DNA of 56,082 bases, counting the filler, from Stramenopiles sp. TOSAG23-6 (Eukaryota): the NCBI GenBank assembly GCA_900128565.1. It is 3 parts of 3 records of this genome, joined end to end, with 100 filler letters (N's around TTAATTAATTAA, not from the genome) between each part and the next. Parts side by side here need not be neighbours in the genome. Positions count along the whole stretch, not along the records: positions 37,653 to 56,082 come from LT636062.1; 2 more parts are not named here. One strand, given 5' to 3'. The notes beneath the pieces were generated by a model that made no database searches, was not told the origin of the DNA, and saw only the letters and a list, made by a program, of their open reading frames with translations. Below, piece after piece: positions 19,888 to 56,082 of this stretch. The position numbers were made by a program, and so were the translations under genes. Numbering within the stretch: the stretch's first letter is position 1; each line of letters opens with the position of its first letter.

Positions 19888-22800
19888 TTAAATGAGTGGC
19901 AGTGAATCATCATTCTTCTTTGGTGATCTAGATGTAGATTTTGAACGTCGCCTTGCCGCAGCCTTTAATTTTCTTTGTTCACTAGGACAAGGCAGATTAA
20001 ATACCAACGATCCAAACATCTTAGTGTTACGCTGCCGAGCTTGTGCTTTTATCTTCTTATTATGCGCATCTCGTCTTCTTACGCGTTCCATTTCTCTATT
20101 ATCTTTCAATTTTGATGCATTGGGGGGGAAATGACTTCTCAAGGCAGTCACAGATCCTATGCTTAACTCATCATGCTGTATTTTAATTGGTTCTACTTGT
20201 GATTTTACTTTTGTGTTTTTTACTCTTTGTGTTTCAATATCATGTGTAAATTGTACAATGTTTCCTGTAGCTTCATGTTGATGTTGTTTCATCTTTTGTA
20301 CACTCTCCCTGAGATGCGACTTTTTCAATTGAATTTGATCTCCTATCCACGTGGCACACTTGACATATCCATAATATTCCGCTATATTTTGGGCACTCAT
20401 TCCATTGGCTGTGCACGACTGTAACCACGCTAGAGGTTGTGCATGTGCTAGTTCACATACATCAAGTAACCACTCTATGAATAATAAATGACCGCCTTCA
20501 GCAGCAGCGTGAAGAGCCGTAGCTTCTCTATTATCGCCCGTCCAAAGAAAATTTGCAAAACGTGAACCATCATGCAGGTCCTGCTGCTTTGCAATACTAG
20601 CTATCCATTTAGCGGTATTTATATGCCCACCAGCAGCAGCAAGAAGCATCGGAGTTTTACCATAATTATCTCGCGACTCAATTCTTGCACCATGTTTTAC
20701 TAAAATCTTGCATATTTCAAGTTGACCTCGTTTTGCAGCACAATGCAAAGGTTGAGAACCATTTTTATCGATAGAAATTGAACTTACACCAATGCCAAAT
20801 AAAACTTTAGCGACAGAGACACTACCACATAGAGCCGCAATGTGTAATGCAGATCGTCCTTGTTCATCTAATGGAGATCTCAAATCACTTTTCAAATTTC
20901 TACTTTTATCTCGTGTTAGTATTTCATGCACATGCCCTGCTTGCCCAGCAGAAACCGCACTATATAATTCTCTTTTCCATTTGACATTCAAAATTCCTCC
21001 TTTTTTTTTACCTTTATGTGGACTTCGACTTTTTCTAAGTGGACTTTTACTACTTGGACTTTTTCTACTTGGACTTTGACTTTTTCTACTTGGACTTTGA
21101 CTTTTTCTACTTGGACTTTGACTTCGTCTGCTTACACTTCGACTTTGTCTGCTTACACTTCGACTTCGTCTACTTACACTCCTACTGTTTGTACTTTTTG
21201 ATTTATGAAAACTTTCCGCACTGAGAACAAAAGATTCAGCTGTACAAGGTCTCATTTCTTCAGACGATGGAACATAATTTTTTTGTGTTGTTTTACCCAT
21301 AGCAACGGCTTGTTTACTTGCCGTATGTAGTGCATCAAGACTCACTAAGGACTGAAAATGAGGCCACGTTACTTTATCGATTCCACCAGAAGCACCCAAC
21401 TCACTGCCAAGATTACAAGTATGAAAGTAGGACCAAATATTCTTCATTTCCAGTTCATCCATTCGAATACCATTCATACGTAGTCCATGGACAAATCCCG
21501 GGTATGATACATGATCATCTTCGTCAGGATTCATACTCAACCATATCTGTTGTGTTGTTCGTCCTTTATTGTACAAACGGACGCGAAGCTTGTCTAACTG
21601 TGACATTCCTCCAGATCTCGAAGATCTTGAATGTGGTTGGTTATACTTATGTTTCGTAGGTACGGTCGAAAGATTATTTTCTTTAGAAAAATAATCATCT
21701 ATTTCATCAAAAGCTTTATCGAGAGAAGCTCCATGCGTACCATCTTCAGATACGATTGTCGACCAACCACTCGCTATTGTCTCTAGTATATGTGATGGCA
21801 TCAAAGGTGCTTCAGGAATACTATTTAAACTTTCATCACCACATATTTTGTTGGTTTGTTTTGGTTGTTTTGGCGAGCCAACTAAAACACTAGCACTATC
21901 ACCTATTTCATAACAATAATCCTCCTTTACTTTTTCTTGTCTTTCAAATTCAATATCCGTTGCAAGCAAGGCATTTAACTGTTCTTCGGTTTCCTTGGCA
22001 GCTTTTGACAATGATAGTGCATAAAGTTCTTCATGTGTATGATTCATATTTTGATCTACTAGTAATTTTAATCGATTTTCAACAAGCCATAATTCCTTTT
22101 GAATACGTCGTAGTTGAAACGTTAGAGATTCCCGTTTTGTCTTTTGTGAAAATTTTATCCTTTTTATATTTAATGCATTAGTATCCATGTTATTTTCAGA
22201 AAAAAGAGTGTCATCTCTTTCTGTTTTCAAATTTGTACTATTTTGAATTTTGTTTTGTGAGTTTTCGTTCCTTTGATTGTCATTATCGATTATGTTGAGG
22301 GCAGACAGGGATCCGTCCCTAGTTGAAATATCATGATCAAGCTCGATGTTTTCTGTTGATCTACCCCTAGTTGAAATATCATGATCAAGCTTGTTGTTTT
22401 CTGTTGATCTACCCCTAGTTGAAATATCATGATCAAGCTTGATGTTTTCTGTTGCATCATGTCTCATTAAAGATTCTGTTGATGTATTTGAAACTTTAAA
22501 ATCCACTTGCTCATCAAGAATGATTAAATCACCAATACTAACTTCATCTTCATCGCCATTACTATATCGCACAGCAACATCTCCATCGTCACATATTTGA
22601 ACTACAGTTCCAATGATTCGTTCGGCGTTTAGATCATATTCATTATAAACACTGACTTTTGTTCCTACTTTTATTTTTTCTACTCTTTTGTTGTCTATAT
22701 CTCTTACTATTGAATCGTTTGACTTTTTCCCACCAGAATTCTCCTCCTTTGCAATTGATACATCAATTACAGTGCTATTTGTGTTAGCCAATGCCGAATG

Positions 22801-23586
22801 TTTCGACTCTTTTTCACCCTCTTTTGCAACTGATACACCATTCACAGTATTATTTGGATTAGCTACTGCTGAACTTTTCGACTCTTTTATTTCATTTTGT
22901 GGAACTGTCTTCTCCGTTTTCATGTCCTTTTCTGCTTGTAAAGAATCAACAGTGGCAAAAAAACCGCTAGATTCGCCATTGGAATTATTTGAAGGACTTG
23001 ATGTTAATACACCAATTGCATAATTACTTGTGCTACTCTTAATGCCTTTTGGTTTATCTTTACTATATTTTGTTTCAATTTCATTGGTCTCTTCAAATAC
23101 AGAAGCTTTTACACTGTCATTACTTGAAATGGCTACATCATTATCTGCTCTAGCTCCAAACTTTAATCGTACTGTAGCAAGAGCTACTTTTGCTATCGTT
23201 CGAAGACGTTGAAGAGGCTTCTTCTTTTTCTTTTTACTATTTGACGGAAGGATAATCAAATCATTTATATTTACTTCATCTTCATCACCATTAGCATATC
23301 GTACAGCAACATCTCCATCTTTACACAGTTCAACGATAGTTCCTTCTATTCTTGGGGCACTTGCATCGAACTCATCTGGAACACTCACTCTTACACCTAC
23401 TCTACACTTCAAACGAACGGCAGCGAGTGCTACGGTCGATAATGTCCGTAAACTTGAAAGCTGCAGGTTTGGCGGAGGCATATGAAAAGGCTCTGTAACT
23501 ATACCATTTTTTATTTTAATTTCTGTAGAGTTGGAAGTATTCAGTTGTTTATCAACGTCGACAAGTTTTGACTCTGCCGCTGCCAT
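19888..23586 (-). CDS. Large protein with two SH3/Tudor-like repeats, an EF-hand-like region, an RS-rich tract and ankyrin repeats (copy 1)
   Basis: GRSALHIAA, GSQPLHCAAKRG, GKTPMLLAA; duplicated G.V...C.DGDVAVRY.NGDEDEV.I.DL module. Confidence 0.82.
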   Translation of the reverse strand: MAAAESKLVDVDKQLNTSNSTEIKIKNGIVTEPFHMPPPNLQLSSLRTLSTVALAAVRLKCRVGVRVSVPDEFDASAPRIEGTIVELCKDGDVAVRYANGDEDEVNINDLIILPSNSKKKKKKPLQRLRTIAKVALATVRLKFGARADNDVAISSNDSVKASVFEETNEIETKYSKDKPKGIKSSTSNYAIGVLTSSPSNNSNGESSGFFATVDSLQAEKDMKTEKTVPQNEIKESKSSAVANPNNTVNGVSVAKEGEKESKHSALANTNSTVIDVSIAKEENSGGKKSNDSIVRDIDNKRVEKIKVGTKVSVYNEYDLNAERIIGTVVQICDDGDVAVRYSNGDEDEVSIGDLIILDEQVDFKVSNTSTESLMRHDATENIKLDHDISTRGRSTENNKLDHDISTRGRSTENIELDHDISTRDGSLSALNIIDNDNQRNENSQNKIQNSTNLKTERDDTLFSENNMDTNALNIKRIKFSQKTKRESLTFQLRRIQKELWLVENRLKLLVDQNMNHTHEELYALSLSKAAKETEEQLNALLATDIEFERQEKVKEDYCYEIGDSASVLVGSPKQPKQTNKICGDESLNSIPEAPLMPSHILETIASGWSTIVSEDGTHGASLDKAFDEIDDYFSKENNLSTVPTKHKYNQPHSRSSRSGGMSQLDKLRVRLYNKGRTTQQIWLSMNPDEDDHVSYPGFVHGLRMNGIRMDELEMKNIWSYFHTCNLGSELGASGGIDKVTWPHFQSLVSLDALHTASKQAVAMGKTTQKNYVPSSEEMRPCTAESFVLSAESFHKSKSTNSRSVSRRSRSVSRQSRSVSRRSQSPSRKSQSPSRKSQSPSRKSPSSKSPLRKSRSPHKGKKKGGILNVKWKRELYSAVSAGQAGHVHEILTRDKSRNLKSDLRSPLDEQGRSALHIAALCGSVSVAKVLFGIGVSSISIDKNGSQPLHCAAKRGQLEICKILVKHGARIESRDNYGKTPMLLAAAGGHINTAKWIASIAKQQDLHDGSRFANFLWTGDNREATALHAAAEGGHLLFIEWLLDVCELAHAQPLAWLQSCTANGMSAQNIAEYYGYVKCATWIGDQIQLKKSHLRESVQKMKQHQHEATGNIVQFTHDIETQRVKNTKVKSQVEPIKIQHDELSIGSVTALRSHFPPNASKLKDNREMERVRRRDAHNKKIKAQARQRNTKMFGSLVFNLPCPSEQRKLKAAARRRSKSTSRSPKKNDDSLPLI

Positions 23587-24001
23587 TTCTGTCTTGAGAG
23601 AATCAGCAGTTCTATCTAGTGAAAGTAAAACATGACAACCATACCACAAATGAGTTTTAGAAAACTGCTATCCCAAATTAGTTTTAGAAAACTGCTATCA
23701 CTGTGAAGGGGTATACAATACGACTGTGAAGGGGTATACAATAAAGTACACTTGACAGTGTACTAGTAGATGGTGTCGGCGATATATATATGTTTTCTTC
23801 TAGTGTACTAGGAATGTATAAAGTGTAACTGTAACGTTTCAGTTAAATTAACGTTTTGTTTTTCCTCTTCTTTATGATTCCTTAGAAAATTAACGTTTTG
23901 TTTTTCCTCTTCTTTAAGATGATTTGCGAATGGAATTAAACTAAAGGTTTATCAAGTACAACCACAGCAAACGCAATTACTTTTACGTTTATCAATATTG
24001 T

Positions 24002-25609
24002 ATGACGATGAATTCTAAAGAGAATATTTTCGAATTAGTGGAGAATATTCTAAAGGAAGAAAATATATTGAATCTACAAGTAAACAACGAATCTCTAGAA
24101 GAAGAGGCAAAAGAGGCTATAGACTCGAACTTTTCAAGACAAAAGAAATATTTCAACTTACAAGTTGGAGTATTCTTTGCACAAATAAATAAGCACTTTT
24201 CTCTGTGCGATTGGAATGAAGCAATGGCGCTGGTAGCAAAGTTATCTATCAAGACTACTAGTACTACAAAATCAGTGAAAAATTTGACCCCAGAGAGTTG
24301 TAATCTCCTTCGAACAGACTATCGCTTAATAATGCTTGCAATCAATCTACTTCTAAACGCAGAAGAGAATCGATGGTCTTTTATTTTACCCCCACTTCAA
24401 TTCATCAGTAATATTTCAATACATGTTGAGAGTAAAATTTTACTCTGCAAATCAATTCCAATTTTTTCTACTCTTTTCGGTTTACTACGAAATAAAAGAC
24501 CCGATACGTTTTTTGATATCAGTGACTATTCCGATGCAAATACTAAAATTATGCAAGATTTGTCAAATATAAAAGAAATGTCTACAATTATGCAAGATTT
24601 GCATGCAAATTTAGCATTTTCTACGGTTAGATTAGAATCGCTCTTAGTACTTTGCGTATTTGCAACTTCTGGTGGGAATTTGATATCATGTAGGTTTTGT
24701 TTTATTTTTTTTTAATTACTATTTTGCTAGCAAAATTTTGTACCTAAACAAAAAATATTTATTTTTTTATTTTTTCACAATACATCATACGATGAAAAAT
24801 ATATTACTGGCATGTATAGCTATGATTCAAATAAAACTAGACCTATACTAGATAGTGAAGAAAACAATCGGAAAGAAACCGCAAAAACAAATAGGAATAA
24901 TAGCCAAGAAGATGTAAACGATAATATTGATGAAAAAAATAACTTTTCTTTGCATTTTACAGCTGAAAGCTTTCAAATTGTGCGTCTTATGCAGGAATGC
25001 GATGCAATATTTGTTTTAGTACAAAGTTTATCTAGAGAAATGCAATTTTTTGATAGTATGTCTAAATATATTGATAATTATAGACATCTGAAACCTGAGT
25101 ATTCTCAGTCTTTAACTACTAATAAGAATGATACCAATATACATGATCTATGTTGTAATTTAGATGACATTCATTGTGCAATTATTTCAGCTAGTAGAGA
25201 AATACTTTTAAGAACAATAAATCTTATTGTTCGTATTGCCCCTATCACCAACAACTACTTACAAAAATCAAATACGACTTTATCTGAAAAAGTATTATCA
25301 GATGTACCAGATGTATCAGAAATAGTACCATTAGATGTATCTGAAAAAGTACCATCAGATGTATCTGAAAAAGTACCATTAAATGTATCTGAAAAAGTAT
25401 CATCAGATGCACGAAAAATACGACTCCAGAGGAGAGCTAACTTACGTCAATGTAAATCATTGAAGATCTTATTTGAACTTTCCAAAGTTTCTGTTGAATT
25501 CACTGGAAAATCAACTTGTGTAAAGAAAAAGCAATTTATTTCATATATTCGAGACAAAATTAGAATGGCTGCTTTAGAATTACAAAAACATATTACTATA
25601 AAGAAATAA
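24002..25609 (+). CDS. Hypothetical helical protein, 2 exons (copy 1)
   Basis: Two ORFs joined in frame by removing 24690-24785. Confidence 0.7.
24690..24785 (+). mobile_element. Introner-like intron, GT-AT, 96 nt
   Basis: AT|GTAGGT...GTACCTAAAC...CACAATACAT|CA is in frame with the ATG at 24812. Confidence 0.8.
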
Positions 25610-25646
25610 ATCAATATACATTCATTAATATTATAAAGAAAATAAA

Positions 25647-26402
25647 TCACCATGCGTCTCTTCCAGATGGACCACGTCGTCCCGATTTTATATTCTTGCG
25701 ATGCTCCTTTTGACGTCTTCGTTTTGCCTTTGTTTTTTCACCAATTCCTTCCCAAATTTTTCGTTCCTTTGGCTCTACAATGGCCTTGTCAACTATCGAC
25801 TGCAACTTTTTCAAACAGTCACGTAAATTGCGACCCTGTGTACGTTCAGCGTCAGAATACAATACAATCTCGCCTGCTTTGTTTATACGAGTTGCTTGTT
25901 GAACTGCTAAACGTGAACGCACCTCCGCCGGTAACCACGGAACAGTATACACGTTAAACCGAACTTCTGCTTTTGTTGACAGTTTGTTCACATTTTGACC
26001 ACCAGGACCAGAACTACGAACATATTTTACATCTACCATGTCTTTTTCAACTATAATTCTATCGTAACTCTTCATTGTCATGCTTTCTTTTGTTGAAGGA
26101 TTTGTAAATGGCAAACTCAGAGATACAGTATTTATGAGAAGCTCGCGAACTTTACTCATATCTGCATGATCAATGTTCTCCCACAAATTCTTCCACACAT
26201 ATTTTAACATTTTGTTTGGAATAATGTGATGGTGGCAGCAATCGACTTTCCACGGAAAGAAGGATTTCTCCATCCTTTTTTTACACAAGACATTTCTTCC
26301 TGATTTGGGCCAATGGATCCAATTATCATCTTCTGGGCTATGTGATGATACAGAAAGAATACAACAAAGTGCAAATACTATAGATTGAATGTACATGTTC
26401 AT
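25647..26402 (-). CDS. Chimeric ORF: unrelated signal-peptide-bearing N-terminus fused to the ICT1 GGQ domain at the inversion breakpoint
   Basis: Identity with 30381-30810 starts exactly at the repeat boundary 26076. Confidence 0.5.
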   Translation of the reverse strand: MNMYIQSIVFALCCILSVSSHSPEDDNWIHWPKSGRNVLCKKRMEKSFFPWKVDCCHHHIIPNKMLKYVWKNLWENIDHADMSKVRELLINTVSLSLPFTNPSTKESMTMKSYDRIIVEKDMVDVKYVRSSGPGGQNVNKLSTKAEVRFNVYTVPWLPAEVRSRLAVQQATRINKAGEIVLYSDAERTQGRNLRDCLKKLQSIVDKAIVEPKERKIWEGIGEKTKAKRRRQKEHRKNIKSGRRGPSGRDAW

Positions 26403-29645: not shown

Positions 29646-29718
29646 AACTCCGTAGCTCAGTGGTAGTAGCGACTGCTTAGTAAGCAGTAGGCCGTGGGTT
29701 CAATTCCCACCGGAGGCT
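29646..29718 (+). tRNA. tRNA-Thr(AGT)-like gene with acceptor pairs 1-2 mismatched
   Basis: A box TAGCTCAGTGG, anticodon arm ACTGC-TTAGTAA-GCAGT, T arm GTGGG-TTCAATT-CCCAC, downstream T-run. Confidence 0.8.
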
Positions 29719-30032: not shown

Positions 30033-30105
30033 AACTCCGTAGCTCAGTGGTAGTAGCGACTGCTTAGTAAGCAGTAGGCCGTGGGTTCAATTCCCACCGG
30101 AGGCT
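30033..30105 (+). tRNA. tRNA-Thr(AGT)-like gene, identical second copy
   Basis: Same 73-nt sequence as 29646-29718. Confidence 0.8.
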
Positions 30106-30288: not shown

Positions 30289-30810
30289 ATGTTGTCCTTA
30301 CGGTATACATTTTCTTATGTCCGTCGCTCGCTCAATTCAAGTAATATTTTGAGTCGTCCTTTCCACGTTTCATCTTTATTAATGAAGAGTTACGATAGAA
30401 TTATAGTTGAAAAAGACATGGTAGATGTAAAATATGTTCGTAGTTCTGGTCCTGGTGGTCAAAATGTGAACAAACTGTCAACAAAAGCAGAAGTTCGGTT
30501 TAACGTGTATACTGTTCCGTGGTTACCGGCGGAGGTGCGTTCACGTTTAGCAGTTCAACAAGCAACTCGTATAAACAAAGCAGGCGAGATTGTATTGTAT
30601 TCTGACGCTGAACGTACACAGGGTCGCAATTTACGTGACTGTTTGAAAAAGTTGCAGTCGATAGTTGACAAGGCCATTGTAGAGCCAAAGGAACGAAAAA
30701 TTTGGGAAGGAATTGGTGAAAAAACAAAGGCAAAACGAAGACGTCAAAAGGAGCATCGCAAGAATATAAAATCGGGACGACGTGGTCCATCTGGAAGAGA
30801 CGCATGGTGA
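30289..30810 (+). CDS. ICT1: Mitochondrial peptidyl-tRNA hydrolase ICT1/mL62 (ArfB family)
   Basis: RSSGPGGQNVNK motif, RTQ.RN, basic C-terminal tail, and a targeting-peptide-like N-terminus (MLSLRYTFSYVRR). Confidence 0.9.
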   Translation: MLSLRYTFSYVRRSLNSSNILSRPFHVSSLLMKSYDRIIVEKDMVDVKYVRSSGPGGQNVNKLSTKAEVRFNVYTVPWLPAEVRSRLAVQQATRINKAGEIVLYSDAERTQGRNLRDCLKKLQSIVDKAIVEPKERKIWEGIGEKTKAKRRRQKEHRKNIKSGRRGPSGRDAW

Positions 30811-30847
30811 TTTATTTTCTTTATAATATTAATGAATGTATATTGAT

Positions 30848-32455
30848 TTATTTCTTTATAGTAATATGTTTTTGTAATTCTAAAGCAGCCATTCTAATTT
30901 TGTCTCGAATATATGAAATAAATTGCTTTTTCTTTACACAAGTTGATTTTCCAGTGAATTCAACAGAAACTTTGGAAAGTTCAAATAAGATCTTCAATGA
31001 TTTACATTGACGTAAGTTAGCTCTCCTCTGGAGTCGTATTTTTCGTGCATCTGATGATACTTTTTCAGATACATTTAATGGTACTTTTTCAGATACATCT
31101 GATGGTACTTTTTCAGATACATCTAATGGTACTATTTCTGATACATCTGGTACATCTGATAATACTTTTTCAGATAAAGTCGTATTTGATTTTTGTAAGT
31201 AGTTGTTGGTGATAGGGGCAATACGAACAATAAGATTTATTGTTCTTAAAAGTATTTCTCTACTAGCTGAAATAATTGCACAATGAATGTCATCTAAATT
31301 ACAACATAGATCATGTATATTGGTATCATTCTTATTAGTAGTTAAAGACTGAGAATACTCAGGTTTCAGATGTCTATAATTATCAATATATTTAGACATA
31401 CTATCAAAAAATTGCATTTCTCTAGATAAACTTTGTACTAAAACAAATATTGCATCGCATTCCTGCATAAGACGCACAATTTGAAAGCTTTCAGCTGTAA
31501 AATGCAAAGAAAAGTTATTTTTTTCATCAATATTATCGTTTACATCTTCTTGGCTATTATTCCTATTTGTTTTTGCGGTTTCTTTCCGATTGTTTTCTTC
31601 ACTATCTAGTATAGGTCTAGTTTTATTTGAATCATAGCTATACATGCCAGTAATATATTTTTCATCGTATGATGTATTGTGAAAAAATAAAAAAATAAAT
31701 ATTTTTTGTTTAGGTACAAAATTTTGCTAGCAAAATAGTAATTAAAAAAAAATAAAACAAAACCTACATGATATCAAATTCCCACCAGAAGTTGCAAATA
31801 CGCAAAGTACTAAGAGCGATTCTAATCTAACCGTAGAAAATGCTAAATTTGCATGCAAATCTTGCATAATTGTAGACATTTCTTTTATATTTGACAAATC
31901 TTGCATAATTTTAGTATTTGCATCGGAATAGTCACTGATATCAAAAAACGTATCGGGTCTTTTATTTCGTAGTAAACCGAAAAGAGTAGAAAAAATTGGA
32001 ATTGATTTGCAGAGTAAAATTTTACTCTCAACATGTATTGAAATATTACTGATGAATTGAAGTGGGGGTAAAATAAAAGACCATCGATTCTCTTCTGCGT
32101 TTAGAAGTAGATTGATTGCAAGCATTATTAAGCGATAGTCTGTTCGAAGGAGATTACAACTCTCTGGGGTCAAATTTTTCACTGATTTTGTAGTACTAGT
32201 AGTCTTGATAGATAACTTTGCTACCAGCGCCATTGCTTCATTCCAATCGCACAGAGAAAAGTGCTTATTTATTTGTGCAAAGAATACTCCAACTTGTAAG
32301 TTGAAATATTTCTTTTGTCTTGAAAAGTTCGAGTCTATAGCCTCTTTTGCCTCTTCTTCTAGAGATTCGTTGTTTACTTGTAGATTCAATATATTTTCTT
32401 CCTTTAGAATATTCTCCACTAATTCGAAAATATTCTCTTTAGAATTCATCGTCAT
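30848..32455 (-). CDS. Hypothetical helical protein (copy 2; GT-AT intron 31672-31767)
   Basis: Mirror of 24002-25609. Confidence 0.7.
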
Positions 32456-32870
32456 ACAATATTGATAAACGTAAAAGTAATTGCGTTTGCTGTGGTTGTA
32501 CTTGATAAACCTTTAGTTTAATTCCATTCGCAAATCATCTTAAAGAAGAGGAAAAACAAAACGTTAATTTTCTAAGGAATCATAAAGAAGAGGAAAAACA
32601 AAACGTTAATTTAACTGAAACGTTACAGTTACACTTTATACATTCCTAGTACACTAGAAGAAAACATATATATATCGCCGACACCATCTACTAGTACACT
32701 GTCAAGTGTACTTTATTGTATACCCCTTCACAGTCGTATTGTATACCCCTTCACAGTGATAGCAGTTTTCTAAAACTAATTTGGGATAGCAGTTTTCTAA
32801 AACTCATTTGTGGTATGGTTGTCATGTTTTACTTTCACTAGATAGAACTGCTGATTCTCTCAAGACAGAA

Positions 32871-35800
32871 ATGGCAGCGGCAGAGTCAAAACTTGTCGAC
32901 GTTGATAAACAACTGAATACTTCCAACTCTACAGAAATTAAAATAAAAAATGGTATAGTTACAGAGCCTTTTCATATGCCTCCGCCAAACCTGCAGCTTT
33001 CAAGTTTACGGACATTATCGACCGTAGCACTCGCTGCCGTTCGTTTGAAGTGTAGAGTAGGTGTAAGAGTGAGTGTTCCAGATGAGTTCGATGCAAGTGC
33101 CCCAAGAATAGAAGGAACTATCGTTGAACTGTGTAAAGATGGAGATGTTGCTGTACGATATGCTAATGGTGATGAAGATGAAGTAAATATAAATGATTTG
33201 ATTATCCTTCCGTCAAATAGTAAAAAGAAAAAGAAGAAGCCTCTTCAACGTCTTCGAACGATAGCAAAAGTAGCTCTTGCTACAGTACGATTAAAGTTTG
33301 GAGCTAGAGCAGATAATGATGTAGCCATTTCAAGTAATGACAGTGTAAAAGCTTCTGTATTTGAAGAGACCAATGAAATTGAAACAAAATATAGTAAAGA
33401 TAAACCAAAAGGCATTAAGAGTAGCACAAGTAATTATGCAATTGGTGTATTAACATCAAGTCCTTCAAATAATTCCAATGGCGAATCTAGCGGTTTTTTT
33501 GCCACTGTTGATTCTTTACAAGCAGAAAAGGACATGAAAACGGAGAAGACAGTTCCACAAAATGAAATAAAAGAGTCGAAAAGTTCAGCAGTAGCTAATC
33601 CAAATAATACTGTGAATGGTGTATCAGTTGCAAAAGAGGGTGAAAAAGAGTCGAAACATTCGGCATTGGCTAACACAAATAGCACTGTAATTGATGTATC
33701 AATTGCAAAGGAGGAGAATTCTGGTGGGAAAAAGTCAAACGATTCAATAGTAAGAGATATAGACAACAAAAGAGTAGAAAAAATAAAAGTAGGAACAAAA
33801 GTCAGTGTTTATAATGAATATGATCTAAACGCCGAACGAATCATTGGAACTGTAGTTCAAATATGTGACGATGGAGATGTTGCTGTGCGATATAGTAATG
33901 GCGATGAAGATGAAGTTAGTATTGGTGATTTAATCATTCTTGATGAGCAAGTGGATTTTAAAGTTTCAAATACATCAACAGAATCTTTAATGAGACATGA
34001 TGCAACAGAAAACATCAAGCTTGATCATGATATTTCAACTAGGGGTAGATCAACAGAAAACAACAAGCTTGATCATGATATTTCAACTAGGGGTAGATCA
34101 ACAGAAAACATCGAGCTTGATCATGATATTTCAACTAGGGACGGATCCCTGTCTGCCCTCAACATAATCGATAATGACAATCAAAGGAACGAAAACTCAC
34201 AAAACAAAATTCAAAATAGTACAAATTTGAAAACAGAAAGAGATGACACTCTTTTTTCTGAAAATAACATGGATACTAATGCATTAAATATAAAAAGGAT
34301 AAAATTTTCACAAAAGACAAAACGGGAATCTCTAACGTTTCAACTACGACGTATTCAAAAGGAATTATGGCTTGTTGAAAATCGATTAAAATTACTAGTA
34401 GATCAAAATATGAATCATACACATGAAGAACTTTATGCACTATCATTGTCAAAAGCTGCCAAGGAAACCGAAGAACAGTTAAATGCCTTGCTTGCAACGG
34501 ATATTGAATTTGAAAGACAAGAAAAAGTAAAGGAGGATTATTGTTATGAAATAGGTGATAGTGCTAGTGTTTTAGTTGGCTCGCCAAAACAACCAAAACA
34601 AACCAACAAAATATGTGGTGATGAAAGTTTAAATAGTATTCCTGAAGCACCTTTGATGCCATCACATATACTAGAGACAATAGCGAGTGGTTGGTCGACA
34701 ATCGTATCTGAAGATGGTACGCATGGAGCTTCTCTCGATAAAGCTTTTGATGAAATAGATGATTATTTTTCTAAAGAAAATAATCTTTCGACCGTACCTA
34801 CGAAACATAAGTATAACCAACCACATTCAAGATCTTCGAGATCTGGAGGAATGTCACAGTTAGACAAGCTTCGCGTCCGTTTGTACAATAAAGGACGAAC
34901 AACACAACAGATATGGTTGAGTATGAATCCTGACGAAGATGATCATGTATCATACCCGGGATTTGTCCATGGACTACGTATGAATGGTATTCGAATGGAT
35001 GAACTGGAAATGAAGAATATTTGGTCCTACTTTCATACTTGTAATCTTGGCAGTGAGTTGGGTGCTTCTGGTGGAATCGATAAAGTAACGTGGCCTCATT
35101 TTCAGTCCTTAGTGAGTCTTGATGCACTACATACGGCAAGTAAACAAGCCGTTGCTATGGGTAAAACAACACAAAAAAATTATGTTCCATCGTCTGAAGA
35201 AATGAGACCTTGTACAGCTGAATCTTTTGTTCTCAGTGCGGAAAGTTTTCATAAATCAAAAAGTACAAACAGTAGGAGTGTAAGTAGACGAAGTCGAAGT
35301 GTAAGCAGACAAAGTCGAAGTGTAAGCAGACGAAGTCAAAGTCCAAGTAGAAAAAGTCAAAGTCCAAGTAGAAAAAGTCAAAGTCCAAGTAGAAAAAGTC
35401 CAAGTAGTAAAAGTCCACTTAGAAAAAGTCGAAGTCCACATAAAGGTAAAAAAAAAGGAGGAATTTTGAATGTCAAATGGAAAAGAGAATTATATAGTGC
35501 GGTTTCTGCTGGGCAAGCAGGGCATGTGCATGAAATACTAACACGAGATAAAAGTAGAAATTTGAAAAGTGATTTGAGATCTCCATTAGATGAACAAGGA
35601 CGATCTGCATTACACATTGCGGCTCTATGTGGTAGTGTCTCTGTCGCTAAAGTTTTATTTGGCATTGGTGTAAGTTCAATTTCTATCGATAAAAATGGTT
35701 CTCAACCTTTGCATTGTGCTGCAAAACGAGGTCAACTTGAAATATGCAAGATTTTAGTAAAACATGGTGCAAGAATTGAGTCGCGAGATAATTATGGTAA

Positions 35801-46986: not shown

Positions 46987-47798
46987 TTAGCAGGTTGAAA
47001 ATTACATATGTAAAATTTTTATTTCAATAAATAAATGATTGAGCTAGTTTTTTATACAAAAACTGATGCTCATTTTACCGGCTGCTGCACTACAATTAAT
47101 TAAATTGTGATTAATATGTACAAAAGTCTAGAAAGCTGTCTTGAAGTTACGGTAATCTTGCCTGGGATTTTCGTCTTTGATAACGATACCAGCAAAAACA
47201 AAAAAACAGTATAATTACTAGCAAACCAGCAGATCCAATAAATATCCAATTAAGCGAACAATCACTCGCCCCAAATGCCTCATAAGGGAATTTACATTTG
47301 CACCCAATATCCAATTCATTATCCCCCCAGCATTCTTTACAATGGTGAATTTCAAAGTGTGCCTTTGGGTATTTAGTAGCCAGACCATTTATAACAATTT
47401 CTGTTTAGTGCGTTATAATTTGCGTAGGAACATGTTCCGTCCGTAGGGTCCCATTTCCATGGAGATTCACAATTTGACATTTTATGATTAGTAATCAAAA
47501 GTTGTGAAAATGATAAATCAATATCTATACAAGGACCCGAAAAGGATGAAAAGTGAAACGACAGTGAAACGGGGTATTGAGACACCTGATCTCACTGGAC
47601 AGACCTGTTCTTACACAACCTTTTTGGTTTTGAGTTTGAGACTCTGAGAGGCTTCGAATAGTACCGGGGTACCAGTACCTATACGTGGATATTTATTCCC
47701 ACACTTTAAATATAGTTTACTTATTTATACACAGAACATACTACAGTCGGCAATAAAGTCAATTTTCATTAACTAGTTTTGTCACTGCTTTTAACGTA

Positions 47799-49678
47799 AT
47801 GGATAGCGTACATCGTGGCAACGCATTCTTCGTTGATGGTAAATTTGAAGAGGCTATCAAGGAGTACGATGCTGCAGCTTCTTCTCACCCGCGTTTGGCG
47901 GATGTTTTCCTAAAACGTTCAGCCGCACACGCTCAGTTACAGAATTATGAGCAGTCATTAGAGGACGCCAATAGGGCAATCCAGTTGAATGAAGCATCCA
48001 ACTATTTAAGCTTCTATCGCAAAGGTTTTGCGTGTTTCTGGTTAGATGAGTTTGAGTCAGCAAAGACGTCTTTTGAGTCTGGTCTGAAACTTTTGGAGGG
48101 TAGTACAAACAATCTTTCTAATGCGCGTGTTTCGAAAGAGTTCAAACAGTGGGTGAGTAAGTGCAATGCTGAGATTGAAGAGGAAGAAGACAGTGATAGT
48201 GATGGTAGTAGTGATGGGGTAATTGAAGAAAAAGGTATTTCTCCAAAGTTGGCCCAAAAGTCTGGTATATCTGTTTCCTCAACGTCTGACCAGATAAAGA
48301 GGCAGGTTCGTGCTGCACGTCATGAGTTTTATCAGACTCCAACGCAAGTTGTTATCACAATCTTTGCGAAAAATATAAAGAAGGAAGACGTGCGTTTTCA
48401 TCATGAATTACATATTTTTTTTTTATTCGTACGAAATTTTGTACCTAACAAATTTCGAATTTATTTTTTTTTACAATACATGTACAAGTTGATTTTACCG
48501 AAACTAATTTCAATATTGAATTTCCACTTTCAACTGGGTCTTCCTATGCGTGTACGTATTCATCATGAATTTCTAATTTATTTTTCATACGAAATTTTGT
48601 ACCTAACAAATTTTTAAAATTTTTTTTTGACTTTTTTATTTCAAAACGTTTTCATCATGAATTTCAAATTTATTTTTCATACGAAATTTTTGTAGAAAAC
48701 AAAAACGATTTCTGTTTATATTTTTTTTCATAGAAAATTTGGTACCTAACAAAAGAAAATTGTTATATTTTTTAATTTTACATGGGATTTTGATACCTTT
48801 GGTAAAATAGTTCCCGAAAAATGTACATTTCGAACCTGTGCTCCAAAAGTTGAAATAAAACTAATAAAATCTGGTGCTTTGCATGAACGTTTCCACAGTT
48901 GAATTTTTGACATAATTTTTTTTTGGTACGAAATTTTGTACCTAACAACTTTTTTACAAAAAGAATATTTTTTCACAAAACATTGGCCATGTTTAGAAGG
49001 TCATGGGATTGCTGGTGGTGCTCATGCAGTTGCAGTTACAAAAAAAGTAAATTCGGCACCGACGCCTTATGTACATTTTCATCATGATTTTTTTCCTAAT
49101 TTGTTTTCATACGAAATTTTGTACCTAACGAATTATTTTTGGACCGAAAAAAAAAAGATATTTTTTCACAGTTCATGCCTCAAAACGAGATTGGTCAAAA
49201 GTTGAGAAGGAAATTGAAAAAGAGCTCGAGGCAGAGAAACCTGAAGGAGAAGAAGCACTACAGAAATTATTCAAAGATGTTTGTTTTAATCATGAATTTT
49301 AAATTTTTTTTTTTTTTGGTAGAAAATTTTGTACCTAACGAAAAAAAAAAATATATTTTTTTTTTTAATACAGATTTACTCCAAGGCGAGCGATGAAACA
49401 AGACGTGCAATGAATAAAAGTTTTCAGACATCTGGCGGCACTGTCCTATCCACTAATTGGGATGAAGTTGGAAAAACGGATTATGAGAAAGAGAAACAAG
49501 CTCCAGATGTACCTTTTCATCATGAATTTATTAATTTATTTTTTTTTTTTTTTTGGTAAAAAAATTTTGTACCTAACAAAAAATCAAATTTTTGAAATAT
49601 TTTTTCACTATACATGGTATGCAATGGAAGAGGTATGATGGGAAAAAAGTTGAAGGTTTAAAAAAGGAAGACAAATAA
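47799..49678 (+). CDS. SGT1: SGT1 co-chaperone (TPR-CS-SGS), 7 exons
   Basis: TPRs; RHEFYQT..V.ITIFAK (CS); [20 protein letters not shown] and APDGMQWK (SGS). Confidence 0.95.
48390..48481 (+). mobile_element. Introner-like intron, GT-AT
   Basis: GAC|GTGCGT...CAATACAT|GTA gives KKEDVQVDF. Confidence 0.85.
48552..48783 (+). mobile_element. Composite introner-like intron (2-3 internal units), GT-AT, 232 nt
   Basis: T|GTACGT...TTACAT|GG gives [17 protein letters not shown]. Confidence 0.8.
48885..48983 (+). mobile_element. Introner-like intron, GA-AT
   Basis: CAT|GAACGT...CAAAACAT|TGG gives [15 protein letters not shown] (conserved end of the CS domain). Confidence 0.8.
49071..49176 (+). mobile_element. 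Introner-like intron, GT-AT (skips CAG at -5)
   Basis: TAT|GTACAT...CACAGTTCAT|GCC gives [10 protein letters not shown]. Confidence 0.87.
49279..49373 (+). mobile_element. Introner-like intron, GT-AG
   Basis: GAT|GTTTGT...AATACAG|ATT gives KLFKDIYSKA. Confidence 0.88.
49509..49615 (+). mobile_element. Introner-like intron, GT-AT
   Basis: GAT|GTACCT...CTATACAT|GGT gives APDGMQWK. Confidence 0.88.
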
Positions 49679-51096: not shown

Positions 51097-52632
51097 ATGA
51101 CAATTATGAATACTCTTTTATTACTTTGCGCTATATTTACTGAAATTCACGCCTCGCAGCAAGGGCTAACACTGAAACCGGCACTGGAGCCAAAGGAACT
51201 CTTCATGATGCCTCCTTTTGCTGATATAGATATGGACAGAAAAGTTGGGAAAGGAGTGAGCACTGAGAAAGTATCTCCTCAGGATACAGCTGCTACAATG
51301 TCAGCTTCAGGCGTTCCCGATACATATACTTCGAAGAACCCATATTCTGAAAATATTGCCACAAATTTACCCGTGGCTATGCCCTTTGCTGATCACAACC
51401 CAGATATGGACGGAAGAGTTGGTGAAGTAGTGAGCACTGAAGAAGTACCTTGGCATGAAGCTCCCACCATTATGTTACGTCAGACAGCAAAGCAAGCTAA
51501 AACACGTGCGAGAAAAGATGAAATTCAAGAAGATTTTGAATCTGCTGCTTTTTGCGACAAAGATAATTGCGAGAGTTTGTTCGACATCATTGAATGGTTA
51601 TCACTTGAAAAAACACTTCACTTAGTGATTAACGAGAAGAAGGATAACTCGGAAGATGTACCTGTTGTGACAATGAATGCACTATTTCCTAAGAAAGCTG
51701 GCGATAAGGAGCCTGCAATTTCTCATCTTAGGAAAGCCAAATTACCTTTTCGTGTGAAAGTTGATAATTCGGAAACAGCACTATTTCATGCAGTTCGCCA
51801 CAAACAAATATTCAACGCTAGGTTATTATTAAATAATGGAGCACTCCCAGATATACCAAACAAAAACGGTTGGCGCCCTATCCATATATCAGTTATTAAT
51901 CGAGACACTGAAATGTTAAGTGCACTCTTGGAGTTCAAAGCTCAAGATGTTATGATCCAAATGCGCTCACATAGTAGTATACATGTGGATCCCGGGGAAA
52001 AGGTAAGTCGAGTTGGTATGTCAGCGATTCATTTGGCTGTAAAGTATAATCAAATGGATTTATTGGAACAACTTTTGAAGAGTCCCCAGCAAAAATCTAA
52101 AACAAGTACAATTAACTCCAAATCATTCCATGGTGGTGATACCCCCTTGCATTTTGCGGTAAAAAATAGTAATATTGTTGCTACTTATCTTTTACTTGAT
52201 GCTGGAGCATTTGTGGATATCAGAAATGCTGAAGGAATTACGGCCGAGGGCATTGCTGATGAAATATTTAATGGTGAGCTTGCTGCCGAGACCAGTTTGT
52301 TTAGTGAACAAGCTTTAGAAGTATTACGGCTAATACGAGTTAAAGGAATTAGAAAATCTTCAAAGAAACGCAGTGGTGTTGATGAAGGTAGTACTAAAAA
52401 AGGTACTAAAAAAAAACCAAAGACAATGCCTGCTGAATCAGAAGAACGTTTTGNTNTTGAGGGTATTATTGCCCATAGACTCTTTGGNANAGGACACAAC
52501 AAACAAATGAAGTANTTGGTTCATTGGAAAGGTTATTCTGAAAATGAAGCCACTTGGGAACCAGAAGAAACACTCCAGAGTGATGTAGAAAGTTTATTAA
52601 CAGCTTATAAACTGGAGAACGATCTTCTCTAA
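51097..52632 (+). CDS. Ankyrin-repeat protein with a C-terminal chromodomain and a signal-peptide-like N-terminus
   Basis: GWRPIHISV, GDTPLHFAV; EGIIAHR...LVHWKGYSENEATWEPEETL. Confidence 0.85.
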   Translation: MTIMNTLLLLCAIFTEIHASQQGLTLKPALEPKELFMMPPFADIDMDRKVGKGVSTEKVSPQDTAATMSASGVPDTYTSKNPYSENIATNLPVAMPFADHNPDMDGRVGEVVSTEEVPWHEAPTIMLRQTAKQAKTRARKDEIQEDFESAAFCDKDNCESLFDIIEWLSLEKTLHLVINEKKDNSEDVPVVTMNALFPKKAGDKEPAISHLRKAKLPFRVKVDNSETALFHAVRHKQIFNARLLLNNGALPDIPNKNGWRPIHISVINRDTEMLSALLEFKAQDVMIQMRSHSSIHVDPGEKVSRVGMSAIHLAVKYNQMDLLEQLLKSPQQKSKTSTINSKSFHGGDTPLHFAVKNSNIVATYLLLDAGAFVDIRNAEGITAEGIADEIFNGELAAETSLFSEQALEVLRLIRVKGIRKSSKKRSGVDEGSTKKGTKKKPKTMPAESEERFXXEGIIAHRLFXXGHNKQMKXLVHWKGYSENEATWEPEETLQSDVESLLTAYKLENDLL

Positions 52633-52875
52633 TGGAGTAATTTATTAAAAACTGATTCATTGAACAATAATCTATAAAAGGACTTTGAAAGAGATATATA
52701 TTTCCTTAATTACTTTTAAAGTCAAATAAAACATTAAATTCAGAATGTTTATTTGGATATTGTGAATAAATTTTATTCGCTATAGAACTTTCTGTATATC
52801 TTGGAAAAAAATAAAAACACGAAATACACTGTAATTTTCGTATTGCAAATCTATCCTTTGATATTTGATTCATTG

Positions 52876-54073
52876 CTATACACACGAAAATTCAACGATA
52901 TTTTTGACACATCCGACTGCCACACTATATCTACGAGGGTGAAAATCACATTGTAACGCCTTTTGTTGGAATGTATTGTGAAAAACAATGTTTTAGTAAA
53001 AAAAAAATTAGGTACCAAATTTCGTACAAAAAAAAATTGAAAAAAAAAATCATAATGAAAATGTACATATACTTGGAAGTAAATCGTCTGAAGTTGAATT
53101 ACTATAAGCACTAGGGGATGTCTTACCCTCACGTTGTAGAACATTTTGAAGATTTCCACTATTATCAAATAAACAAACTCGATTACCATTTCCTGTGAAA
53201 GAATATTTCAAAAATTCAAAATGTTTTAGTATATTGTACGAGTTAAAATCTTTAGAAATTTAGAAATTTAAGTTTAAATTTGGTAGGAAAAAAAAAAAAC
53301 AATACATTTGAAACAAAAGATTCGAAATTTATGATGTAAAACAAACATATGTACCTGTAACAAAGAATTTATCATCATGGGACACTGAACATAAAAAGTA
53401 AAACAATATGTCAAATTTGAAATTCGTTACATATGCAATTTTTTTTACGAAAAAAAAAAATGTTACGAAATTTTTTTTACGAAAAAAAAAATTGTTACGA
53501 AATTTACGTACACTTATACTTATCGAAAATTAAATCTTGTAAATAAAGGTTTTTCAATTTAGGTCTTAAATATTCCTGTACGTTAATAGTTAATACTGGC
53601 ATATGTTCCATCCGCGCATCCCATAATTTCAAAGACATGTATTGTGAAAAAATATTTTTGTTTTTTGTTAGGTACAAAATTTTCTACCAAAAAAAAAAAA
53701 AATCCAAATTGAAAAAACTAAACATACATGTATTGTGAAAAAAAAATTCAAAAATTGTTTTTGTTTTGTTAGGTACAAAATTTCGTATGAAAAAAAAAAT
53801 TCAAAAAAAAAATTAAACATACATATAATCACGCATTAGCAATTGATGACCTGCATTGGTAAATTTAATATCGGAGATACATTCCAAAATTTCTGCGAAA
53901 AATGCATGTGATGATTTTGCCGAAGCATCTTTAAATTCTTTAACACTATTATCGCATAAGGCGGCAGTGCGCCTGTATTGTGAAAAAAAAAAATTGGTAA
54001 AAAAAAAATTGTTACAATTTTTTTTTACAAAAAAAAAAAAAAAAAAAATGGGAAAAAAAAAAATTTTTAAAAT

Positions 54074-54104
<31 letters not shown>

Positions 54105-55149
54105 TCGTGTTAGGGTTAGGGTTGGATGAAAAAGTACATATCAGCAAGTCTTACAGAACCAGTCGAAGTACTGTACGCAAAAATATGTGATTGACTAGGG
54201 TGGAACGTTGCCGCTGTAAGAACTTCAGAGAGAGATTCCATATCGGTTGGTTTCATATCGACACAAGTAAAGCAAGTATCTGAACGGTCCATATGCCATA
54301 TATTGTGAAAAAATAAATTCGAAATTCAAAAAAAACAAAAAATGTTAAGTACGAAATTTGGTACGAAAAAGAAAATAAATTTAAAATTCATGATGAAACA
54401 CATACAAACATTTACTCGTAAGTCATCGGATGACAAGAAGCTTTCGCCATCGCTACATACTGAAAGAGAATTAATATGATATGCCTATAATTGAAAAAAT
54501 ATGTCAAAATGTAAAGTTCTTTAGTTACAGAATGTTTTTGAAAAAAATTCAATACATTCAAAATTGAAAAAAGTACATGAGCGTTTGCAAATACTTTTTT
54601 CTCTGTCGTCGGGCAGTCACTGTGTGTTACACTATCCGCCACACTACTCCTATCATCTTTATTCTCAGGATGTATTTTCCAAAGTTTTATAGTTTTATCA
54701 TTAGTTGTTAGTAAGAATTGAGACCGATTCGGTCGAGGTAACCAAGTTAGGTGATTGATTCGTTCTTCAATTTCGAGGCTCCTTAAGTAGTCAAATTCTC
54801 TATTATGTGATTGAAACGCAGTATGTCTTCTATAGATCCTATTTAAATGTTTTGCTTCCCCAGTGTAGTTTTCAATCGATCCCTTTTCACCACTACAATT
54901 ATACACGTAAACACCTCCAAGGGTGTCACCTGCAGCGACGAGTTCACCACAGTTGCTATATGCTAGTGCAGATATTTCATGAGTTACTGATTCTGTGTCT
55001 GTATCCATAGAATCGCCATTTGCTCCATTTGATTGTATTAAATCTGTATTCGTACAAGCAAGAACTTGACCTAGTTGCCACTGATGTGGAGAAGTTTTAT
55101 TAGCTGGTAGGCTTACAGTACTATCGATATCCATAGCACTAGTTACCAT
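52876..55149 (-). CDS. PPP2R2: PP2A regulatory subunit B55/PR55 (WD40); introns 54485-54576 (AG), 54298-54405, 53973-54137 (AG), 53728-53822, 53637-53727, 53391-53511, 53188-53346, 52971-53066
   Basis: FQSH..EFDYLRSLEIEERIN, TNDKTIKLWKI. Splicing restores NAHAYHINS, DDLRVNVW, DMRTAALCD, RDYMSLKLWD, IFDKYKC and FHP. Confidence 0.93.
53637..53822 (-). mobile_element. Two abutting introner-like introns with a zero-length exon
   Basis: AT|GTATGT..CACAATACAT|GTATGT..CACAATACAT|G; each unit has its own TACCTAAC. Confidence 0.85.
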
Positions 55150-55899
55150 GGTCTCGTCAATCTATATTTTTCATATATGGTAATTGAATAAAAGTTAGAT
55201 AGAAAACGTCACAAAACTGCAAGAAACAAAAAGAAACAGTACACGATAATAACGATAATAGCATACAACTGTGTATCTTTCTCATATGAAAAAGGAAAAA
55301 AATGGTGGGAAACAGTCTGAGTGATAGGACAACTTACTGCAAGCATTAATTAGGTCTACAAATATTGCATACACTTTTTGGACTTAAAAAGTATGAGCTA
55401 TTATAATATAGATTGATTTTTCAAGGTTTCCGTTCAGTAATCTTTTCTATGTGAATGAGAGAAATCGACTTTCTGGATTTTCCTTATCAGAAGATGAAGC
55501 TAAAATAAGTTTATTTTCTGGATCTCGATTGAAAATTGAAAAAAACATCAAAAAAAAAAATACAAAAATTTTCGAGAGATCTCAGATTCTCATTGATGTG
55601 ATGTCTTCAAAAATTTCGACAGGTTTGTTTGCGCGCTCAGAATAAATTCCGAAATTGGAAAAACGATGACGAAAAAAAATATATGAAGATTTGAATGATG
55701 ATTGAAGAAGTATGGTCCTCAGGACTATTATATATCATCAAGGATATCTTTTAGTTGCATTTTTCAAAATCAACGATGAGAACAAAAAAAGAGTTTCGTT
55801 TCATACAAAATTCAAACGGTTGTATTTGAAAAAATCCCAACCCTAAAAAAAATATTTTTTCAAAATACCATAAAATAATTTATATTTCAAACTTAATCA

Positions 55900-56016
55900 T
55901 TAATGCTCTAATACGTAATGACTTGGATATTTCGCAATATGTTTAAGCATTTCTTTTTTTTGTTCCTTCAAGTGCTCAGGTAGGTCAGCATATACATCAT
56001 TGAACATTTCGTTAAC
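55900..56016 (-). CDS. BCKDHA: Last exon of branched-chain 2-oxoacid dehydrogenase E1 alpha
   Basis: Translates VNEMFNDVYADLPEHLKEQKKEMLKHIAKYPSHY (not in the ORF track), like the BCKDH E1-alpha C-terminus. Confidence 0.75.
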   Translation of the reverse strand, partial: VNEMFNDVYADLPEHLKEQKKEMLKHIAKYPSHYVLEH

Positions 56017-56082
56017 ATGTGTTTTGTAAAAATATTTCAAAAAAAAAAACTAAAATTTGTTAGGTACAAAATTTCGTACGAA
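56017..56082 (-). mobile_element. 3' part of an introner-like intron, ending CAT
   Basis: TTCGTACGAAATTTTGTACCTAAC...CAAAACACAT|GTT. Confidence 0.8.

Follow-up and report, generated by a model that had tools for sequence, protein, structure and literature searches.

We found that the gene for the PP2A B55 protein in Stramenopiles sp. TOSAG23-6 (Eukaryota; GenBank assembly GCA_900128565.1) is interrupted by two complete intron-like units that stand back to back, with zero nucleotides (nt) of exon between them. The gene lies in record LT636062.1, within a 56,082-nt stretch joined from parts of three records of this genome (hereafter the window; all positions count along it). Our preferred reading, at a probability of roughly three in four, takes these 186 nt as a head-to-tail pair of introners: a mobile intron of ~95 nt, cut GT...AT, would have multiplied across the genome and be present here in two copies. 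The twin in B55 is confirmed as a real observation, beyond chance, and the use of GT-AT as the rule for the whole family across the window is a larger result than the twin.

Two complete introns abut in the B55 gene

The two units and the exons on either side of them are the following.

53823..53972, minus strand: exon 4, upstream of the twin, encoding ...AGHQLLMRDY plus the AT of a Met codon; ends ...CGTGATTATAT
53822-53728, minus strand: unit A, a 95-nt family intron, GTATGTTTAA...GTACCTAAC...TTTTCACAATACAT (nhmmer E 2.7e-10)
53727-53637, minus strand: unit B, a 91-nt family intron, GTATGTTTAG...GTACCTAAC...TTTTCACAATACAT (nhmmer E 5.6e-12)
53512..53636, minus strand: exon 5, downstream of the twin, with the G of the Met codon plus SLKLWDARMEHMPVL...; starts GTCTTTGAAATTATGGGAT

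Both units have a GTATGT donor, a CTAAC branch motif and a CACAATACAT end. The branch motif lies 45 nt from the 3' end in unit A (53772-53768) and 35 nt from it in unit B (53671-53667). The inner junction at 53728/53727 reads ...CACAATACAT|GTATGTTTAG, with the GTATGT donor directly after it, and its acceptor and donor are the same signals as those of working single copies. Removal of unit A brings exon 4 against a donor in unchanged context, and removal of unit B likewise brings the acceptor of unit A against exon 5. A sequence-only reading had described two complete, abutting units of 95 and 91 nt, each with donor, branch motif and end, and on the minus strand this description is exact. Tandem Repeats Finder did not report the twin, because the units are only 75% identical and differ by indels.

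The translation with all 186 nt taken out is ...HQLLMRDYMSLKLWDARMEH..., that is, ...LLMRDYM|SLKLWD.... When either unit A or unit B is retained, the product becomes ...RDYMYV*, with a stop right after YMYV. The same earlier reading held that double removal restores RDYM-SLKLWD; the translation bears this out, as do six of six relatives, in which the stretch is contiguous. Five of these relatives come from the protein collection (P0003-P0007), are 67-84% identical over exon 4 and all read RDYMSLKLWD. The sixth is a metagenome contig (L001) with 69% identity over exon 4 and a G+C content of 0.42 (0.35 here); its open frame across the twin site reads ...LLLRDYMSLKLWDARMEHRP..., and its contiguous 169 amino acids (aa) spanning the site match B55 alpha in PDB at E 5.7e-52. 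Human B55 alpha has an uninterrupted RDYLSVKIWD at this place. The 186 nt must therefore leave the B55 message. The scan of metagenomes with exon 4 returned this one relative only, and no second copy of this species' locus.

The whole B55 gene was modelled as follows.

52876..55149, minus strand: PP2A B55 coding region as modelled, 8 exons, 445 aa; introns 1, 2, 3, the twin (A+B), 6, 7 and 8
55149-54577, minus strand: exon 1, matching 3dw8_B / 8uo5_B (B55 alpha) at E 1.1e-26
54485-54576, minus strand: intron 1, ends ...TTTTTTCAATTATAG; weak match to the family profile (E 0.059)
54298..54405, minus strand: intron 2, a family copy, GTATGT...CACAATATAT, GT-AT; 5' flank TT
53973..54137, minus strand: intron 3, family-derived, 165 nt, GTACTT...CACAATACAG, whose final G makes a canonical AG
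52971..53066, minus strand: intron 8, a family copy, GTACAT...CACAATACAT, GT-AT

With all introns out, every junction of the 445-aa model is colinear with three relatives (P0004-P0006). At the sites of intron 2, intron 3 and the twin, the sequences of all six relatives run on without an insertion, which in B55, the one gene compared, shows a gain specific to this lineage. L001 does have introns, but these are GT-AG introns with GTAYRT-type donors and are sited elsewhere than introns 2 and 3 of the window's gene. The family profile gave nothing significant on L001 (best E 0.61).

Two further details of this gene concern other introns. At the borders of intron 6 (53509-53513 and 53382-53385) the relatives have KCS where the GT-AG model yields KLS. 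A telomere-type TTAGGGTTAGGGTTGG lies at 54110-54125 on the plus strand, beside very long A/T runs, within the 165-nt intron 3.

A family of introns with GT-AT ends

The units of the twin belong to a family of related introns in unrelated genes, whose GT-AT rule across the window had escaped the sequence-only reading. For the motif CACAATAYAK the window has 12 occurrences where 0.69 are expected, and 100 shuffles gave at most three each. A search of the 56 kb with a family profile built from ten copies, which match it by construction, gave 32 matches at E<1e-3. Every match lies on the coding strand of its host gene, and removal of copies restores reading frames. Two pairs of these matches sit within a duplicated arm of the window (see below). 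The hosts are eIF2B-epsilon-like, Na/H exchanger, ABC transporter, SGT1-like, B55 and other protein genes.

For the description of the ends we curated 25 full-length copies. Four matches were left out because of N blocks or the window end, as were one duplicate and two with unclear ends; two matches were merged into one composite, and B55 intron 3 was added from the motif search. The family has the shape AT|GTAYRT...CTAAC...TTTTCACAATAC-AT|. The 5' terminus is GT in 24 of the 25 copies and GA in the remaining one, and the donors are GTACGT, GTATGT, GTACAT, GTAGGT, GTACCT, GTTTGT, GTGCGT, GTACTT, GTACGA and GAACGT. At the 3' terminus, 22 copies end in AT (21 in CAT, one in TAT) and three in CAG. 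An AT stands directly before the intron in 19 copies, and the first exon base after it is G in 14 of the 25, compared with 17.5% G in the window. A CTAA(C/T/A) motif is missing from two copies; in 22 of the 23 that bear it, the nearest one lies 35-52 nt from the 3' end, and in one it lies 26 nt from it (consensus (A)CCTAAC).

The three copies that end in CAG are B55 intron 3 (53973-54137) and those at 9900-9995 and 49279-49373. Together with the weak match of B55 intron 1, they suggest that GT-AT copies turn into ordinary GT-AG introns through a T-to-G change at the last base.

The terminal sequences ATGTA...TACAT are inverted over ~5-6 nt only. Predicted folding was no better than that of shuffled sequences, either for five single units (A, B and three others; z -0.92 to +0.88) or for the whole twin (z -0.39). 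A structure-guided (hairpin) excision was rejected, since no fold beat the shuffles. The family core has no exact match in viral_contigs, and no autonomous partner or transposase was seen within the 56-kb window.

Some copies stand out individually. At least seven family copies lie in the gene at 37650-39420. A 21-nt exon at 37713-37733 (plus strand) lies between two family introns, as ...CCAAAAAACAT|gtctttggagtgttgaagcaa|GTATGT.... The copy at 48885-48983 (plus strand) has the donor GAACGT; its flanking frames, ..GALH|WPCLEG.. (CS-domain-like), need its removal, and the cut could there be placed at AT-AC as well.

A probable cut after AT

For each match, an open-frame script selected the combination of donor and 3' end (CAT or CAG) with the longest frame across the join, and compared this cut with shifts of 1 or 2 nt. 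Candidate borders were found for 22 of the 32 matches. At least 50 open codons lie on each side of the chosen cut in 13 of these 22 rows (up to 500 and 424), and in 12 of the 13 all four shifted controls have fewer than 50; the 13 rows include one duplicate, one CAG-ending copy and the copy at 49071, for which the upstream CAG was chosen.

Single genes locate the cut more closely. In the ABC transporter, only a cut after CAT in the copy at 41146-41047 restores the Walker A loop ...FGLLGVN|GAGKTTTL..., and a cut after the CAG located 5 nt upstream breaks the frame. By its open frame, the copy at 37983-38074 likewise needs the CAT cut and not the upstream CAG, whereas this test is indecisive between the two for 49071-49176. 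In these three copies (3' ends at 41047, 38074 and 49176) the sequence is ...CACAG(A/T)(A/T)CAT, with a CAG 5 nt before the CAT that is needed. That this CAG is passed over indicates that the acceptor is not simply the first AG past the branch site. In the SGT1-like gene, Pfam SGS positions 1-32 are matched by exon 49177-49278, which follows the copy at 49071-49176, up to its last residue, and positions 33-72 by exon 49374-49508 from its first residue. Transcripts of SGT1 homologues have APDGMEW or APNGMDW, and the last exon of the window's gene, after the copy at 49509-49615, begins with GMQW.

Where the intron lies between two ATs, the same exons would result from a cut placed 2 nt to the left, which gives AT-AC borders. 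This placement is possible in 19 of the 25 copies and impossible in the six without an AT flank (TT twice, GG, AA, AC and GT), so that AT-AC borders are excluded for those six. B55 intron 2 is one of the copies with a TT flank, and its N-V-W join is fixed by the relatives (VNLW), so that the cut can only be GT...AT or, one base over, TG...TA. Ciliate-type excision at the DNA level was rejected as well, since the exons use the standard code without in-frame stops and the units have a spliceosomal donor and branch site. We infer that the spliceosome removes these introns at GT-AT.

GT-AT is known as a rare variant of U12-type introns (PMC1557818), and the units might on this ground be taken for minor introns. 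This appears extremely unlikely. None of the 25 copies starts with [GA]TATCC or [GA]TATCT, or has the donor [GA]TATCCTT; they start with GTAYRT, as do the GT-AG introns of L001. The branch motif, too, is a CTAAC at the 35-52 nt seen in 22 of 23 motif-bearing copies, and not a TTCCTTRAC close to the 3' end.

Origin of the twin and a second dimer

Units A and B are 75% identical, with several indels. Unit A is just as close to copies in two other genes, at 77% (38753-38850) and 75% (24690-24785), and pairwise identities among ten copies, intron 3 aside, range from 62 to 77%. The divergence between A and B argues against a doubled haplotype, an assembler's duplicate or a recent tandem duplication. 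Two origins remain compatible with it: a single AT may have been hit by two insertions, or a duplication may date from about the time when the family spread.

The sequence-only reading had proposed that a second element inserted at the AT of the first. The AT before 19 of 25 copies and the AT end of 22 of 25 agree with this, but the identity between A and B, the same as that between unrelated copies, does not set the twin apart. A duplicated AT that offers a fresh target at each end of an existing copy is a reasonable reading of these sequences, and the AT flanks themselves can be taken as a putative 2-nt target duplication. The idea of insertion at AT is plausible for the twin, though inseparable from an old duplication.

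We consider it rather doubtful that the twin arose in situ, by tandem duplication of an element with its AT (slippage or unequal exchange on the border ATGT) and not by a second transposition. Both borders of the twin are AT|GT, which offers 4 nt of microhomology; both units begin with GTATGTTTA and have AAATTTTGTACCTAACAA in common; and an AT-unit-AT-unit-AT arrangement is expected from either process. However, unit A is as close to copies in other genes as to unit B, so such a duplication would have to be about as old as the family's spread, and GTATGTTT starts are also found in the copies at 7438, 37734, 39064 and 41146.

The window contains a second composite of this kind.

48552..48783, plus strand: second head-to-tail composite, 232 nt, in the SGT1-like gene, with two to three unit cores

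Its inner junction is ...CAAA|ACGT..., with no inner donor or acceptor left, and the composite could be taken for an aged form of the B55 twin. Without inner signals it leaves only as one intron, which indicates that dimers can persist as a single long intron. By rough arithmetic, 25-30 copies with two flanking ATs each, set against 5,460 AT dinucleotides per strand, would give ~0.15 back-to-back pairs per window if ATs were hit randomly. This estimate rises a few-fold under an AT|G preference, because the 5' border of each copy is itself AT|G. With an intact twin and the composite at 48552-48783 against ~0.15 expected, dimers seem to form more often than by chance.

RNA and DNA contigs across the twin

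Words of the B55 gene were recovered from DNA runs of one coded organism as well as from metagenomes and polyA metatranscriptomes of seawater, so that the host is a marine planktonic eukaryote. We mapped 52516-56082 in one DNA run (X3) and three RNA runs (X5, X7 and X10), all as contigs, with 53676-53827, 53025-53074 and 54014-54112 masked as repeat. Mapping depths (for example, 60,599 in the last X3 bin) are sums over organisms and not copy numbers, and they were not used. Exon 1 is uncovered in X5, as are several bins in X7 and X10; such gaps prove nothing.

One contig of the polyA metatranscriptome X5 (record 19, 377 letters) joins the two sides of the twin. Its letters 28-156 lie on 53510-53638 and its letters 160-345 on 53828-54013, and three unplaced letters, themselves not visible, stand for 53825-53827. 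Given the masking, and since AT is present at both 53637-53638 and 53823-53824, this arithmetic amounts to the exact loss of 53637-53822. At its left end the contig agrees with the genome as far as 53510, which is 2 nt from the border predicted between exon 5 and intron 6; 27 further letters lie beyond this point, and the next exon is 30 nt long. The DNA contig X3 record 11 reads through the same border to 53478. Record 19 is very probably a partly processed transcript.

Several points weigh against the interpretation of the 186 nt as two mobile GT-AT introns. In RNA, a single short contig supports this interpretation, with the letters at its joint unseen, and no other GT-AT copy had a joint in the contigs of the three RNA runs over 52516-56082. 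Record 19 itself runs at least 41 nt into intron 3, and contigs of X5, X7 and X10 (records 1, 17, 18 and 24) run from exons into introns 2, 3, 6 and 7, so that unspliced RNA or DNA must be present in the RNA libraries; the contig from a DNA allele free of the introns would be identical to the spliced product. Because 53676-53827 is masked in the DNA run X3, the genomic reality of the twin rests on this one assembly. The open-frame test does not discriminate in 9 of its 22 evaluable rows, where the exons are too short. A preference of insertion or selection for AT|G would look identical to a 2-nt duplication, and the two cannot be told apart. Finally, a non-AG acceptor on this scale, with a major-type spliceosome, is unusual.

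Two specific alternatives arise from these points. Contaminating DNA of a strain or allele that never received the twin (a presence/absence polymorphism) is an improbable source of record 19. The stretch of intron 3 and the intron-covering contigs would suit such a source, as would the two differences from the genome among 186 positions (53903 and 53976). On the other hand, the match of the contig to the genome ends no more than 2 nt from the border of exon 5 and intron 6, where the DNA-run contig reads on; the X5 library is polyA-selected; the absence of both diverged units from one allele needs two events; and the B55 gene requires the removal of the 186 nt in any case.

An assembly artefact, in which a repeat-induced loop or chimera created the second unit, is very unlikely. 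The assembly does have weak spots in the window, where Ns occur and N blocks flank a perfect inverted duplication of 7,272 nt, and the family is highly repeated, the twin being masked in an independent DNA run. Yet about a quarter of the positions differ between the units, in addition to the indels, and both flanks are correct in-frame B55 exons. A spurious loop would still need a genuine ...CACAATACAT|GTATGTTTAG join somewhere, and the second, decayed dimer lies 5 kb away.

Proposed mechanism and route of removal

On the interpretation as an introner family, each copy would bring a U2-type donor (GTAYRT), a CTAAC ~35-52 nt from the end, and TTTTCACAATAC followed by AT. This final AT is the same dinucleotide as the one that stands just before the element in most copies, and would be the product of a target duplication. 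The spliceosome would cut before GT and after the final AT, so that the element and one AT leave and the coding sequence is restored. In the twin, the AT bordering the first copy may have received a second one, or an element with its AT may have been duplicated long ago. The pre-mRNA could then lose the units singly, in either order, or as one 186-nt intron, and all routes would give the same mRNA. Either order is possible because each unit is complete and each removal regenerates the same donor or acceptor context.

In short introns, the nearest matching donor, branch site and acceptor are normally paired. The default expectation from the arrangement of the signals would be recognition unit by unit, with separate lariats, through a zero-length exon. 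The inner signals of the twin are intact and do not differ from the signals of working single copies, and the branch-to-acceptor spacing of unit A (45 nt) is typical of the family. It is also conceivable, with somewhat less than even odds, that the twin leaves as one composite intron, in which the donor of A is joined to the branch site and acceptor of B, the inner AT|GT is silent and a single 186-nt lariat is formed. The 165-nt family-derived intron in the same gene indicates that length is no obstacle. The dimer at 48552-48783, with no inner signals, lies between frames that still need its removal as one 232-nt intron, and the sole RNA form seen, the X5 contig, lacks both units. In addition, a U1 small nuclear ribonucleoprotein on the inner donor would cover the inner acceptor, and the two removals are thus probably not simultaneous. 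Our guess is a mixture of both routes, with unit-wise removal slightly ahead.

The sequence-only reading also likened the junction to a recursive-splicing ratchet point with AT|GT in place of AG|GT. An acceptor does abut a donor at 53728/53727, and in terms of arrangement the names zero-length exon and ratchet point would be formally right; CAT|GTATGT nevertheless misses the consensus (Y)nNCAG|GTAAGT.

A bolder proposal, which we put forward tentatively, would join these elements. The major spliceosome of this organism may take ...CACAATACAU as a regular acceptor, with AT serving as both acceptor and landing site, and arrays with AT|GT ratchet points might be removed unit by unit. The 3' end would then be set otherwise than by a first-AG rule, with the CAG 5 nt upstream being passed over. 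Candidate causes would be an altered acceptor-recognition factor, or a pairing of the intron ends, AUGUAU with AUACAU. Head-to-tail arrays with zero-length exons would form repeatedly, and an occasional T-to-G change (3 of 25 copies) would yield ordinary GT-AG introns.

Comparison with known intron systems

The family resembles introners in that many related copies are present as introns in unrelated genes, are absent from orthologous sites of relatives and have short flanking repeats, and in that their removal would keep the length of the mRNA unchanged. Introner families are known in Micromonas, Aureococcus, dinoflagellates, fungi and others (PMC9860276, PMC12130899). A parallel to the proposed mechanism is a Chrysochromulina family, in which the element carries the 5' splice site and the 3' splice site comes from the duplicated target (PMC9860276, Fig. 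2 legend). Here, however, the presumed co-opted acceptor is AT and not AG, and the putative duplication is 2 nt, compared with the 3-9 bp quoted for earlier families. The passages on splice sites in the 2025 introner survey give AG and AC only as 3' splice sites, and families with unfamiliar sites were checked or discarded (PMC12130899). No head-to-tail introner dimers are described in the relevant passages of PMC9860276 and PMC12130899. Neither a GT-AT intron family nor head-to-tail introners were found in Creative Commons papers of PMC and in bioRxiv, supplements aside, and excerpts of the marine stramenopile single-cell genome papers (PMC5269757, PMC5778133) likewise contain neither.

With recursive splicing in Drosophila and S. 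pombe, the twin shares a 3' splice site placed directly against a 5' splice site, so that upstream removal regenerates a donor. Drosophila ratchet points are recursively spliced at zero-nucleotide exons (bioRxiv 10.1101/006163), and S. pombe SPNCRNA.445 shows recursive splicing within a short intron of 336 nt (bioRxiv 10.1101/226894). Those junctions are AG|GT, whereas the present one is AT|GT, and they divide parts of one intron, whereas the twin consists of two homologous mobile units. Fungal stwintrons are similar in having two spliceosomal introns in one intervening sequence and in their link to introner-like spread (PMC8469720). As described there, the inner intron interrupts the donor, branch site or acceptor of the outer one, which forces the order of removal; in the B55 twin no signal is interrupted, and the units abut and are complete.

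Many introns of the planktonic Fritillaria borealis (PMC13326754) and Amoebophrya (PMC7789003) also escape GT-AG, and gene prediction based on GT-AG fails there. The termini reported in these two papers are diverse, whereas the family described here has a normal GTAYRT donor and one dominant pair, GT-AT, in which the last base is deviant. A subset of Amoebophrya introns consists of repeated elements with short direct repeats overlapping their borders, but inverted repeats or terminal hairpins of 8-20 nt are given for them (PMC7789003). The present family has no supported hairpin, and no stable stem of the kind found in hairpin-dependent introns (Amoebophrya introner elements, euglenid nonconventional introns).

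Isolated GT-AT introns occur in animals, among them a conserved U2-type intron in DGCR2, and have been shown or inferred to be productive; in the same source, GT-AT accounts for 7 of 66 non-canonical U12-type introns in four species (PMC1557818). In Physarum, a figure of 17% of non-canonical minor introns is given for GT-AT. The animal introns are single conserved exceptions, in contrast to the norm of a mobile family seen here, with 22 of 25 copies in 56 kb.

Consequences for annotation and meaning

The database's own models of the window are eukprot:GSMAST32.ASY1.ANO1.2602.1 and.2601.1; the letters MAST3 in these names may refer to MAST-3, a group of uncultured marine stramenopiles. The B55 model (P0002, 386 aa) contains 16 extra residues from intron 2 and 17 from unit B, and stops after exon 5. 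In the SGT1-like model (P0008, about 47757-49678), the C-terminus is a translated intron. That these models translate GT-AT introns or truncate at them indicates that the family is unrecognised in them. Errors are therefore likely in the protein catalogues and intron statistics of this lineage wherever the family is present.

Bursts of intron gain are at present best explained by introners. The known families have GT/GC/GA-AG or AT-AC ends, and surveys filter accordingly. If the acceptor is indeed the duplicated AT, a transposon could make working introns without supplying or finding an AG, a major-type spliceosome would routinely use U as the last intron base, and GT-AT introns could later become canonical through one substitution. 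The twin is a natural zero-length exon between two complete mobile units, and would be a compact substrate for studying the stepwise use of abutting splice sites.

Other features of the window

The segments 18805-26076 and 30381-37652, separated by a spacer of 4,304 nt, form a perfect (100%) inverted duplication of 7,272 nt. Their outer ends lie in 44-N blocks, and several genes and two family introns are duplicated. An amplification chimera, a scaffolding artefact and a true palindrome are all conceivable explanations. Two tRNA matches on the plus strand, at 29648-29715 and 30035-30102 (both 51.3 bits), are associated with the spacer of this duplication; the former lies within it, and the latter begins there too.

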